From a virus, in the IMG/VR virus record IMGVR_UViG_3300044732_002213: a stretch of DNA of 14,520 nt. The stretch is one strand, 5' to 3'. The notes beneath the pieces are model-generated. The model searched no databases. It was not told the origin of the DNA and worked only from the letters and a program-made list of their open reading frames with translations. The position numbers and the translations under genes were made by a program. Shown one piece after another: positions 350 through 1,329 of the stretch. Numbering within the stretch: the stretch's first letter is position 1; every line of letters begins with the position of its first letter.

Positions 350-1096
350 TCAGATAATACGTTTGTGTGTTTTGATAGACCATTTTTCTTTAATTATCCA
401 ACCACTATTACCTGAGTAAAACTGTCTGCCATTAACTCCGAGAGAGGCCAAAGTTTTCTTCATATGAGTAGTCTCTAATTGCTCATGAGTTTTTGTATTG
501 TATAAGATTGTGTGAAATTTGGGTCTCTCTTCACCTGCAGTTGGGCTGTGTTTGGCCAAGGTTTCTCTACGTTTTGCTCGCTGTTCTTCAGTAAGATTCA
601 TTTTGGCACCAATAGGTTTGCCTGCATTTTTGCTCCTTCTGGTCTCAATCATTTGTTCTATAGATGACCTAGACCTAGGCTTACCTTTATTATGCGCGGG
701 TTGCCCCCTTCTGCGAGTGTTGGCGGCTATTTGGGCCGGAGAGATCTTTCCTTTGTGTGACTCGCTCAAAGCCTTGATATTCTCTGATTTGATTTTCTCA
801 TATTCACCAGCCGAAACTCGATATCTATCTCTCTGGTCTTTTGGGCCGATCATTCTCCATAGAGCATGAGTCATCTTGTGCTGATAAGAGCCGGTTGTAA
901 ATTTAGTCAGCAGTTTATGCACCAAAAAATGTTCTCTTCCAGTTAGAACAACAATATTGTCTGGCTCATTATTACCACCAAGGGACTTGGGAATGATATG
1001 ATGTTTCTCTCTATAAACATCACCTTGGATTATACGTGATTGAGCATGGGCAATCAGATTGATATACCATGTGAGGTATTTGTTGTTGACGAACAT
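350..1096 (-). CDS. HNH homing endonuclease (HNH_3-type nuclease domain plus C-terminal NUMOD-like basic DNA-binding repeats), 248 aa
   Basis: ATG at 1096-1094 and TGA at 352-350. The N-terminus MFVNNKYLTWYINLI...KHHIIPKSLGGNNEPDNIVVLTGREHF is the classic free-standing HNH homing-endonuclease signature. The C-terminal half carries repeated HKGK/HNKGK basic motifs. AGGAG lies 8 nt upstream of the ATG on the minus strand. The N-terminal 85 aa are about 60% identical to ORF 8050-8538. Confidence 0.85.
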   Translation of the reverse strand: MFVNNKYLTWYINLIAHAQSRIIQGDVYREKHHIIPKSLGGNNEPDNIVVLTGREHFLVHKLLTKFTTGSYQHKMTHALWRMIGPKDQRDRYRVSAGEYEKIKSENIKALSESHKGKISPAQIAANTRRRGQPAHNKGKPRSRSSIEQMIETRRSKNAGKPIGAKMNLTEEQRAKRRETLAKHSPTAGEERPKFHTILYNTKTHEQLETTHMKKTLASLGVNGRQFYSGNSGWIIKEKWSIKTHKRII

Positions 1097-1118
1097 GATG
1101 ACTCCTGTTATATATTAC

Positions 1119-1153
1119 GTGTGGGACAGCCCGGAGCACTCCGAGCCGGGTTT
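1119..1153 (-). promoter_or_regulatory. Conserved 5' element (copy A) immediately upstream of the HNH gene: GTGTGGGACAGCC...AGCCGGGTTT, then a TA-rich box and SD, exactly 22 nt before the ATG
   Basis: Copy A (1119-1153) and copy B (8561-8593) are near-identical apart from a 2-nt indel. Both sit 22 nt from their HNH start codon. On the minus strand each is followed by a TAATAT/TATATT box and then GGAG. This looks like a phage promoter or regulatory leader shared by both HNH paralogues. Confidence 0.45.
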
Positions 1154-1175
1154 TGAAGAGGTATCAGATCTTCAA
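1153..1175. other. Hairpin ttgaaga(ggtatcaga)tcttcaa, 7-bp stem, abutting the conserved HNH 5' element
   Basis: Inverted repeat read directly. An analogous but unrelated-sequence hairpin (8594-8614) sits in the same position at the second HNH locus. Confidence 0.4.
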
Positions 1176-1195
1176 TTACCACTGATATTTATAGG

Positions 1196-1223
1196 TTGAC
1201 ACACAGATAAATATCAATATACT
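1196..1223 (+). promoter_or_regulatory. Sigma70-like promoter TTGACA-16nt-TATACT driving the tRNA-like gene
   Basis: TTGACA at 1196-1201 and TATACT at 1218-1223, giving a 16-nt spacer. The predicted transcription start is about 10 nt before the acceptor-stem 5' end at 1240. Confidence 0.5.
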
Positions 1224-1239
1224 GAATATATAGAGCGCT

Positions 1240-1329
1240 GCCCCTGTACCAGCCCTGGTTTCTACCCAGCAGAAGCTGTAATTGGAGGCGATAGCATCAA
1301 TGTGGGTTCGAATCCTGCCAGGGGCGCCA
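1240..1329 (+). tRNA. tRNA-like element: perfect 7-bp acceptor stem, U8-A9, canonical T-arm (GTGGG-TTCGAAT-CCTGC), discriminator G and encoded CCA. The D/anticodon region (1249-1301) is about 14 nt too long for a canonical cloverleaf, so this may be an interrupted or type-II-like tRNA, or a tRNA pseudogene.
   Basis: 5' acceptor gcccctg (1240-1246) pairs perfectly with caggggc (1319-1325). T-loop TTCGAAT with G53/C61. CCA at 1327-1329. A consensus promoter lies just upstream. I could not fold a canonical D-arm or anticodon arm by hand; the best anticodon-like stem, gctgt/atagc (1275-1279/1291-1295), encloses an 11-nt loop. Confidence 0.4.

Follow-up and report, generated by a model that had tools for sequence, protein, structure and literature searches.

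A candidate late-promoter and leader slot for free-standing homing endonuclease genes within tRNA regions of uncultured freshwater phages

In the 14,520-nt stretch of viral DNA studied here (IMG/VR virus record IMGVR_UViG_3300044732_002213; the whole of it is referred to as the window), two minus-strand genes of the HNH homing-endonuclease type, which we call HNH-A and HNH-B, each stand behind a module of ~100 nt that is placed back-to-back with the sigma70-type promoter of a tRNA or tRNA-like gene on the opposite strand. The module is conserved in sequence and covaries in its pairing, it is distributed over many related metagenome loci or contigs (designated by L-numbers, such as L063, in the comparison with the window), and the open reading frames (ORFs) behind it have been swapped, have decayed and have been lost. 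The interpretation that we prefer, and to which we assign a probability of roughly 60%, is that the module acts, in the tRNA regions of an uncultured freshwater phage clade, as a slot from which free-standing homing endonucleases are expressed via a late promoter and a 5' untranslated region (UTR).

The module and its distribution

Read on the nuclease strand, the module consists of (T/C/A/G)ATAAATA or GCTAAATA, N4, TGGTAAT, a first hairpin, AAAAC, a second hairpin and the tail UGUCCCAC, after which come a short free stretch, the block AUAUUUACUUGGAGAU (ACAGGAGUC in the type A leader) and the ATG of the nuclease gene (Table 1). An earlier reading of this DNA, made from the sequence only, had singled out a conserved element of 33-35 nt, and this element corresponds to the second hairpin of the module. 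The sequence-only reading had also described one architecture for both loci, in which the element and an adjacent hairpin separate a minus-strand HNH gene from a tRNA-like gene that has a divergent TTGACA promoter, and all of this was confirmed at both places: the distance of 22 nt between element and ATG is exact in both copies, the adjacent hairpins differ in sequence and are each fully complementary, and the divergent sites match the sigma70 consensus at most positions.

The sequences GTGTGGGACAGCC and AGCCGGGTTT each occur twice in the window, at 1119/8561 and 1144/8584, respectively. A 13-mer that is repeated once in 14.5 kb is near chance expectation; the module as a whole, when scored with a covariance model built from 18 module copies, gives E = 2e-19 and 2e-24 for the two window copies, and the same model recovers more diverged copies as well. 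A two-part leader pattern had 28 matches in the JGI metagenome collection, 25 of which showed the full architecture, the other three being chance matches, while the full leader pattern retrieved one further contig from IMG/VR. The 62 exact IMG/VR matches to GTGTGGGACAGCCNGG, the 5' half of the element, were all discarded as chance since none of them had its second half. Among ~50,000 cultured-phage records, blastn with the module returned chance fragments only, and in Rfam the leader matched no family. The motif thus recurs in many related genomes and not just at the two sites of the window, so that a regulatory interpretation of it stands.

Every module is surrounded by a phage tRNA region, in some cases one that packs as many as 14 tRNA genes into 10-14 kb. 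The window has two modules in its 14.5 kb, and each related locus has one or two. In ~200 kb of flanking DNA, the covariance model found the module before none of the other genes. What does lie behind it are nucleases of at least four unrelated families (Table 1), and a fifth type may be present behind the diverged copy at L075:1559-1655, where the gene encodes a zinc-finger protein with a nuclease-like motif that was read by eye. Other modules are empty: those of L091 and L079:2151-2250 abut the 3' end of a tRNA gene, and those of L103-105 have no nuclease gene either. Still others, in L063, L100, L101 and L106, are decayed. The idea that the leader belongs to the HNH gene therefore has to be given up.

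Turnover of nuclease genes behind the leader

HNH-A matches the PHROG family phrog_655, annotated 'homing endonuclease', at 1.4e-35, and by tblastn its nearest relatives among cultured phages, with 30-38% identity, are MobE and further homing endonucleases from T4-like phages. Pfam HNH scores are weak for both window copies (19-21 bits, under the cut-off). A protein identical to HNH-A was found in 52 blocks of the metagenome collection. HNH-B, whose true start is the ATG at 8536-8538, shares 38 of 60 residues (63%) with HNH-A in the HNH core, i.e. the first 60 residues, in agreement with the ~60% noted before for the nuclease domains, 64 of 119 (54%) in the N-terminal domain and 40% overall. 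Both genes are intergenic and self-contained, and such genes are present, absent or replaced among near-identical genomes. Their sequences thus support the assignment of HNH-A and HNH-B as homologues of Mob-type free-standing homing endonucleases. Two other explanations of details in these genes were considered and dropped. A genome-wide recoding of stop codons would not account for the in-frame TAA of HNH-B, as the other ORFs of the window are long under table 11 and the suppressor tRNAs of the relatives read TAG, and the repeat shared by 331-357 and 7838-7864 falls in different reading frames of the two genes and is probably due to chance.

At locus A, the window can be aligned to L076 on both sides of HNH-A, over 94-341 at 94% and over 1096-1690 at 89% identity, and between these two flanks L076 carries the gene of a 281-aa DUF559 nuclease. 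The remnant at 142-345 of the window has 94% DNA identity to the 3' end of this intact gene. Together, the flanking alignment and the remnant show that the ORF of HNH-A replaced ~215 codons at the front of a resident gene for a DUF559 nuclease. The breakpoints are located at the ATG and at ~341 inside the DUF559 ORF. The 5' junction falls on the ATG or directly behind it, the type A leader was kept in full together with its Shine-Dalgarno sequence, and the spacer at locus A is identical to the one before the DUF559 gene of L076.

In the case of locus B, HNH-B is missing from L063, L100, L101 and L106, which have 44 nt instead of 7797-8532 and are 99% identical to the window in the flank on the side of the gene with Major Vault Protein (MVP) domains. 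All four retain the Shine-Dalgarno sequence, ATGTTT and about seven further HNH codons (MFLDYTS, compared to MFINNKYTS), which makes about nine codons of the gene, and a leader in which hairpin 2 has lost 13 nt and the box is mutated to TATAGACA. The nuclease-less alleles are thus deletion derivatives, not naive targets, and the loss is bounded at the module. In terms of the life cycle of homing endonucleases, the TAA in HNH-B and the deletions in the sister contigs represent its expected phase of decay and loss. The gene-order comparison with HNH-less relatives, which had been proposed as a way to define the insertion boundaries, gives one boundary at the module for each of the two events, the HNH-A/DUF559 swap and the HNH-B deletion.

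The leaders of the two loci are of different subtypes, and each subtype is found with more than one nuclease family. Type A stands at the locus of the UCU tRNA-like gene, with an HNH gene in the window and a DUF559 gene in L075, L076 and L096. Type B stands at the tRNA(CAU) locus, with an HNH gene in the window, L077, L081 and L098 and a zinc-finger nuclease of the MAKYP type in L085, L099 and L102. The leader subtype tracks the tRNA neighbour and not the nuclease family, and the two loci of the window are therefore better seen as independent occupants of a resident slot than as a duplicated mobile cassette, as had been proposed. The proposal of a mobile homing cassette that travels with tRNA genes holds up in part, in that the genes are homing-nuclease homologues with presence and absence alleles and that tRNA genes lie beside every related locus; the part that fails is the duplicated unit.

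Promoter box

In the window, TATAAATA is found twice, both times in a module, where 0.2 occurrences would be expected. Across 19 copies of the module the box takes the forms TATAAATA (10 copies), CATAAATA (4), GCTAAATA (2), AATAAATA (1) and GATAAATA (1), and the conserved core is ATAAATA-N4-TGGTAAT. No conserved -35 sequence was seen in these copies, the best match to TTGACA being 1-5 of 6 positions at inconsistent spacing. Late promoters of the T4 type are characterized by TATAAATA at -13 to -6 with a variable first T and by the lack of a -35 sequence, with CTAAATA in Aeh1 (PMC1524935). The (N)ATAAATA box is identical to this T4 late-promoter consensus, and the variants that we observed, with C, A or G in the first position or with CTAAATA, match those of the same report.

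With the box at -13 to -6, the transcript would be expected to start at the G of GGTAAT. The conserved element had been put forward as a candidate phage-specific promoter. It is probably not one, considering that the promoter-like (N)ATAAATA lies ~55 nt farther upstream on the HNH strand, a position that would make the element a hairpin of the transcribed 5' UTR.

Hairpins and proposed mechanism

In hairpin 1, six of the eight pairs change on both sides, and 98.6% of the cells are paired in the alignment of 18 copies. Its covariation score of 0.47, compared to 0.13 in shuffled alignments, was reached by 0 of 500 shuffles, and the score was at most 0.18 when the pairing partners were slid. Hairpin 2 has the consensus CGGCUYGG-loop-CCRGGCUG, with two invariant G.U pairs that are possible only in RNA of the minus (nuclease) sense, and one of its pairs covaries, being U-A in 12 copies and C-G in 4. 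The invariance of hairpin 2 among the first copies in itself says little, because the hairpin was fixed by the search pattern. In two diverged copies the helix is kept by compensatory changes, as CAGUCUGG/CUGGACUG in L074:1179-1276 and as CGGCUUGA/UCAGGCUG in L075:1559-1655. The sense-strand hairpin is also more stable than the fold of the plus strand in 21 of the 27 distinct copies, with mean folding energies of -10.7 and -9.1 kcal/mol, respectively. Added GGU/ACC pairs, predicted by RNAalifold, would place the 5' end of the transcript within a helix. A long-range GUGG/CCAC helix that closes both hairpins was rejected, as five copies have AUGG with CCAC and thus an A.C mismatch.

Based on these features, it can be hypothesized that a late, gp55-like system recognises a -10-only (N)ATAAATA box on the minus strand, and that the transcript begins at the G of GGTAAT within the conserved TGGTAAT. 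The 5' UTR would open with hairpin 1, whose sequence is free and whose pairing is kept, and the GGU/ACC flanks could bury the 5' end. In E. coli mRNAs, 5' stem-loops protect the message. A stem-loop at the very 5' end would here most likely stabilise the mRNA and restrict nuclease expression to late infection, and the unstructured, A/U-rich Shine-Dalgarno region (GGAG) would permit translation. Nuclease ORFs of several families would recombine in behind the leader, decay and be lost, with the leader remaining, so that the slot would lend any incoming nuclease ORF a late and tolerated expression. Under this model HNH-A would be a recent occupant that displaced a DUF559 nuclease, and HNH-B an old occupant in decay.

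Several points weigh against this model. The related loci were fetched via the leader itself, and the near-invariance of hairpin 2 in the first 18 copies was therefore made in part by the search. Outside the modules, TATAAATA is near chance in 145 kb, with 13 occurrences against roughly 9 expected, an estimate from base composition. No homologues of gp55, gp33 or gp45 were seen in the 5-27 kb around each module, where no core genes were seen, and the accessory genes that can be recognised are similar to those of jumbo phages outside the T4-like group, such as phiRSL1 and the Caulobacter and Brevundimonas phages. Unlike in the T4 paradigm, the folds of five full 5' UTRs gave no sequestration of the ribosome-binding site, the Shine-Dalgarno sequence being open. 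As to the strand, hairpin 1 has Watson-Crick pairs only and is neutral, and hairpin 2 favours the minus sense. The plus strand can fold an alternative hairpin, AGCCYGG/CCGGGUU followed by 3-6 U, and a plus-strand or DNA-level role of the hairpins is possible. The strand, start site and timing of transcription are all inferred from the DNA.

Alternative explanations

A different function for the same DNA would be that of a composite spacer on the plus strand, comparable to the PeSL elements discussed below, in which hairpin 2 and its U run end the upstream unit, TTGACA-N17-TATAAT starts the next tRNA, and the nuclease ORFs are incidental. We regard this as possible but unlikely. On the plus strand the order is indeed stem-loops, near-consensus sigma70 promoter and tRNA, the empty modules of L091 and L079:2151-2250 directly follow the 3' end of a plus-strand tRNA, and the alternative fold with its U run is kept even in the diverged L074 copy. 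The exclusive Watson-Crick pairing of hairpin 1 would suit this role as well, and in T4-like phages PeSLs combine a stem-loop with an early promoter at the boundaries of ORF swaps (PMC4122927). However, the alternative stem has a loop of 10 nt and wobble pairs in the two basal positions, it is often followed by just 3 U, it is the less stable fold in most copies (see above), and a terminator scan flagged only the copy of locus B, with a different pairing. In addition, the compensatory change from G-C to A-U in L075:1559-1655 fits the minus-sense helix only, and both ATAAATA-N4-TGGTAAT and the Shine-Dalgarno block AUAUUUACUUGGAGAU are meaningful on the minus strand only. Furthermore, TTGACA is absent from L073, L074, L079, L083 and L084, despite the rest of the module being kept.

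It is improbable, in our view, that the module is conserved as a DNA-level recombination site, where homologous or site-specific exchange shuffles the nuclease cassettes, rather than for expression. The same leader before different nuclease families and the boundary of the HNH-A/DUF559 replacement at the module are what such a site would produce, hairpin 1 with its Watson-Crick pairs is what would be expected if both DNA strands matter, and the PeSLs provide a precedent. The 5' junction at locus A, though, is outside the conserved hairpins, at or after the ATG, and the type A Shine-Dalgarno sequence kept there points to microhomology (GTCAACA) and not to an exchange within the leader. The module is associated with no recombinase, and the G.U pairs and compensatory changes of hairpin 2 argue for selection on RNA.

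The sequence-only reading had named an autoregulatory site as the other candidate role of the leader. Such an operator, mimicking a homing site and bound by the HNH protein, has a model in I-TevI, which represses its own late promoter via an operator that resembles its homing site (PMC2988022), and the element does lie between the promoter box and the ATG. Self-repression by one nuclease is nevertheless very unlikely because unrelated nucleases share the element: their families, at least four, have unrelated DNA-binding parts, the element persists after loss of the gene, and it is located downstream of the promoter box, with no overlap. Finally, a recent segmental duplication with similarity but no function would explain two copies that lie 7.4 kb apart and are arranged alike, and is hardly credible given proteins of 40% identity, unrelated tRNAs, fully diverged spacers and hairpin 1 sequences, and a leader that is near-identical here and in ~25 other loci from many samples.

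Table 1. Features of the two module loci, interrupted tRNA genes of related loci and nuclease families found behind the module (positions are those of the window unless an L-number is given)
Feature	Position or loci	Strand	Description
DUF559/Vsr-like nuclease remnant	142..345	-	C-terminal 67 codons and stop; translation ends in GADFVFVSSKLIIELDGTHHRTRADLDAVRDSHLSSKRGYTVLRISHAEYKKGTRIAEIKNLLGI before the stop
HNH-A	350..1096	-	intact gene, Mob-type free-standing HNH homing endonuclease by homology, 248 aa
Spacer A	1097..1118	-	22-nt 5' UTR spacer; Shine-Dalgarno AGGAG (plus-strand CTCCT 1102-1106)
Leader A	1119..1153	-	hairpin 2 at 1127-1148, sense CGGCUCGGA-GUGC-UCCGGGCUG, and UGUCCCAC tail
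Hairpin 1, module A	1153..1175	-	TTGAAGA/TCTTCAA; GGU/ACC flanks can close the 5' end
Boxes A	1175..1193	-	predicted start-site box GTGGTAAT 1175-1182; T4-late-type TATAAATA 1186-1193
Sigma70-like promoter A	1196..1223	+	TTGACA-16-TATACT, 11/12, for tRNA-like A
tRNA-like A	1240..1329	+	7-bp acceptor stem, no D arm, extended anticodon arm, loop UUUCUAC (UCU), T arm, GCCA end
HNH-B	7801..8538	-	Mob-type HNH, full-length homology to HNH-A; in-frame TAA 8050-8052; called product 162 aa
Spacer B	8539..8560	-	22 nt; Shine-Dalgarno GGAG (plus-strand CTCC 8545-8548) within conserved AUAUUUACUUGGAGAU
Leader B	8561..8593	-	includes hairpin 2, 8569-8588
Hairpin 1, module B	8594..8614	-	CCTGTTG/CAACAGG
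Boxes B	8615..8633	-	predicted start-site box ATGGTAAT 8615-8622; TATAAATA 8626-8633
Sigma70-like promoter B	8643..8671	+	TTGACA-17-TAATAT, 10/12, for tRNA B
tRNA(CAU) B	8687..8811	+	split; exons 8687-8721 and 8770-8811; found by ARAGORN only with introns allowed
Anticodon insertion	8722..8769	+	48 nt; acceptor-like 6-7-bp stem and T-arm-like 5-bp hairpin UGAGG-UUCAACU-CCUCA
Further interrupted tRNA genes	L063:9434-9573; L064:11595-11734, 12636-12773; L078:918-1043; L083:5761-5902; L085:7974-8101; L087:4344-4474		
Mob-like HNH family	window A and B, L073, L074, L077, L080, L081, L084, L087, L098		N-terminus MFINNKY; window copies match phrog_655 and, weakly, Pfam HNH
Zinc-finger family with DUF559/Vsr-like C-terminus	L075, L076, L096		N-terminus MQSTSIC; PF04480, 6e-10
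Zinc-finger family with C-terminal RDH...HPANC HNH-like motif	L079, L083, L085, L099, L102		N-termini MTVIFTC, MPKYPC, MAKYPY; no Pfam
386-aa protein with the same RDH...HPANC motif	L078 (relative in L074)		N-terminus MAISKITG; no Pfam

Unusual tRNA genes beside the module

The two plus-strand genes that adjoin the modules of the window are unrelated to each other. That both are tRNA-like could be confirmed; the label tRNA itself is weak, with no call by ARAGORN in default mode in the whole window. The gene at locus A was also passed over in the mitochondrial and relaxed modes, and it scores 26.3 bits against the Rfam tRNA family (RF00005), under the gathering score of 29. In addition to its missing D arm, it has a long variable region with a D-loop-like AAUUGG. 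Its design is kept in L076 and L096 via compensatory changes, and is thus found in three lineages including the window.

The tRNA gene at locus B yields a cloverleaf only once an insertion of 48 nt is removed from the anticodon. Alignment with six uninterrupted orthologues, whose loop is CUCAUAA, places the insertion between C34 and A35, and in L103-105 an allele of this tRNA(CAU) with an identical body has no insertion. A 49-nt variant of the insertion is found in L063, L100 and L106, where three stem pairs are changed yet still paired (GGGGGAU/AUCCCC to CGAAGAU/AUCUUCG); the two variants differ at ~30% of positions, and the exons at ~4%. The call of Pro(CGG) that ARAGORN makes here assumes an intron at 37/38 and is not credible, as the sister allele would then be Arg(CCG). 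A gene at 4597-5199 (+), 3.5 kb from the tRNA(CAU), encodes a TilS N-terminal (lysidine synthetase) domain (TIGR02432, 122.5 bits compared to a cut-off of 93.6), which suggests that the tRNA(CAU) is probably tRNA-Ile2. The insertion directly follows C34, the base that is modified by TilS.

Similar minihelix insertions of 48-52 nt, made of a stem and a T-arm-like hairpin (..GG-UUCAAYY-CC..), are present within the anticodons of several other tRNA genes, at 34/35 or 35/36 (Table 1). Among them are tRNA-Leu(UAA) and tRNA-Leu(CAA) in contigs of the same phage, outside the window, and tRNA-Thr(UGU) and others in related loci. They are not group I introns, as 48 nt compare with ~200 nt or more for a P3-P9 core. 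Nor do they look like the protein-spliced introns of archaea and eukaryotes, since inspection by eye, with no dedicated tool, revealed no bulge-helix-bulge, i.e. no two 3-nt bulges 4 bp apart at the junctions, and the junctions at locus B are at 34/35 and not at 37/38, the usual site. There, the 5' junction abuts the helix of the insertion, with 4-5 unpaired nucleotides and AUAA ahead of the 3' junction. In Rfam, the insertion had no match at E <= 1 in the window, nor at the gathering score in eight related loci. A link between interrupted tRNAs and the nuclease slots was considered and found unconvincing, for the two are adjacent in the window, in L063-type contigs, L085 and L087, and not in L078 and L083.

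It is a tentative and rather doubtful proposal that these insertions represent a novel class of small intervening elements in phage tRNAs, forming, together with the RNA that lacks a D arm, a non-canonical repertoire that standard annotation misses. Two mechanisms can be envisioned, both of them speculative. The insertion might be excised as a tRNA-like substrate by processing of the RNase P and RNase Z type, followed by rejoining of the halves by a phage RNA-repair ligase. Alternatively, it might be retained for the immunity that it confers, either to host anticodon nucleases or, as in collaborative homing, to the neighbouring homing nuclease. In the cyanophage S-PM2, the free-standing F-CphI lies beside the intron-containing psbA, and in such an arrangement the insertion could protect the genome that hosts it. 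The likeness here is that a free-standing nuclease gene adjoins a gene with a potentially protective insertion; the difference is that several uninterrupted tRNA(CAU) genes sit beside intact nucleases. Collaborative homing as a concept appears in PMC2790892 and PMC6083498. In the Lak megaphages, the 'enigmatic' tRNA introns (Devoto et al. 2019, PMC6784885) are short conserved insertions in the anticodon loop, of which one 'may itself encode a tRNA', and they resemble the present insertions in having alleles with and without the insertion and boundaries that are offset from the canonical 37/38. Unlike those of Lak, the insertions described here come from another phage lineage and habitat, are acceptor/T-arm minihelices of 48-52 nt within the anticodon, show compensatory evolution between alleles and, in two cases, have a slot for a homing nuclease as their neighbour.

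Other irregular tRNA sequences were noted in the same regions. In L077:5616-5680, in L081 (3' of the tRNA at 6095-6171) and, next to the module, in L079 and L083, there are orphan stretches that consist of a T arm, a 3' acceptor strand and CCA and lack the 5' half. They show partial complementarity to the tRNA(CAU) beside them, in its 5' acceptor strand, and look like relics of incomplete tRNA duplications. Many tRNA genes of L073, L083/L086, L091 and L095 are overlong for their class (for example Lys 84-91 nt, Cys 89, Trp 89, His 87 and Met 84), which suggests further expansions in otherwise class I tRNAs. At 9889-9923, the window has the 5' half of an amber-suppressor tRNA(CUA) that runs into unrelated sequence, with a promoter-like site at 9827-9856, and the intact gene is found in the sister contig (L100:1622-1697). 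Genes for tRNA(CUA) are also present in L081, L087 and L095, though the ORFs are normal under table 11.

The window and its relatives

By megablast, no DNA-level match of the window to cultured phages was found, and freshwater metagenome assemblies carry its DNA at 98-100% identity. The gene content of the window is phage-like, with Peptidase_S74 tail-spike/fibre-like, homospermidine-synthase-like, TilS N-terminal and MVP-shoulder proteins. Its tail-fibre-like protein is similar to those of many marine phages; for a PTH2-like protein, the similarity is to those of Caulobacter and Brevundimonas jumbo phages. The tail-spike/fibre-like gene at 12650-14500 (-), inside the ORF 12170-14503, comprises at least ~16 tandem repeats of 51 nt (17 aa) and has the Peptidase_S74 chaperone domain at its end. 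The gene at 1958-3361 (+) encodes a protein of the saccharopine-dehydrogenase fold, with 41% identity to the homospermidine synthase of the Ralstonia jumbo phage phiRSL1, and points to a phage polyamine metabolism. The product of 5159-7729 (+), of 856 aa (829 aa as called in related contigs), has Major Vault Protein shoulder (3.7e-19) and Vault_3 domains; such a protein is unusual in a phage, and it has no match in PHROG and NCBIfam. Just 3' of the tRNA-like gene at locus A, the stretch 1479-1923, which in the window includes a GC-rich patch at ~1650-1800, is unrelated in L063 and L068, contigs that are otherwise 98-99% identical to the window, and constitutes a second variable spot beside the slot.

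Known systems and implications

Two known systems come close to the module, and by analogy it may be seen as a variant of both, namely of the T4-type control of homing endonucleases by late promoter and hairpin, and of PeSL-like cassettes. In T4, segB lies between the genes for tRNA-Arg and tRNA-Ile, and both segB and the mobE of Aeh1 have a late promoter and an RNA hairpin (PMC2988022). The free-standing nuclease, the tRNA neighbours (for segB), the TATAAATA-type late promoter and the stable 5' RNA hairpin are all shared with the module, for which they are predicted from the DNA. In seg43(25) of Aeromonas phage 25, the hairpin is likewise just upstream of the ribosome-binding site and does not cover it (PMC2988022). 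The late, tolerated expression proposed for the slot agrees with the argument made there for segB, mobE and the nucleases of introns. In contrast to these T4-family regions, one near-identical two-hairpin leader is here common to at least four nuclease families in many phages and outlives the genes, the promoter is upstream of the hairpins and not inside, so that the early/late switch of the ribosome-binding site does not apply, and nuclease and tRNA genes lie antisense to each other.

The second system, PeSL and PmSL of T4-like phages (Arbiol et al. 2010, PMC2839356; Comeau et al. 2014, PMC4122927), consists of mobile regulatory cassettes. As with PeSLs, the module is a short, conserved and repeated unit of stem-loop and promoter motifs in variable regions, which marks the boundaries of ORF insertion, deletion or replacement between close relatives, and the near-consensus TTGACA-16/17-TATACT/TAATAT comes after hairpins 2 and 1 when the plus strand is read. 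PeSLs, however, are found on early and middle promoters before miscellaneous ORFans, whereas in the module the box is of the late type and on the opposite strand, the 5' UTR is long, conserved and structured, and only nuclease genes or empty sites have so far been seen behind it.

That late promoters and RNA hairpins tame the homing endonuclease genes of T4-like phages, and that PeSLs shuffle ORFs, was already known. What is added here is a single conserved leader with a late-type promoter box that is common to unrelated nuclease families and survives the gain, replacement, decay and loss of its cargo, and a safe-harbour expression slot for selfish nucleases would be a testable model for it. 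In practical terms, the covariance model of 100 nt can lead straight to new nuclease genes in metagenome data, and of the four families two have no Pfam assignment. The tRNA-like genes that annotation tools miss, with population alleles that have or lack a nested insertion, provide material on the 'enigmatic' tRNA introns of phages, and the unusual tRNAs beside the module may well be a more novel lead than the module itself.

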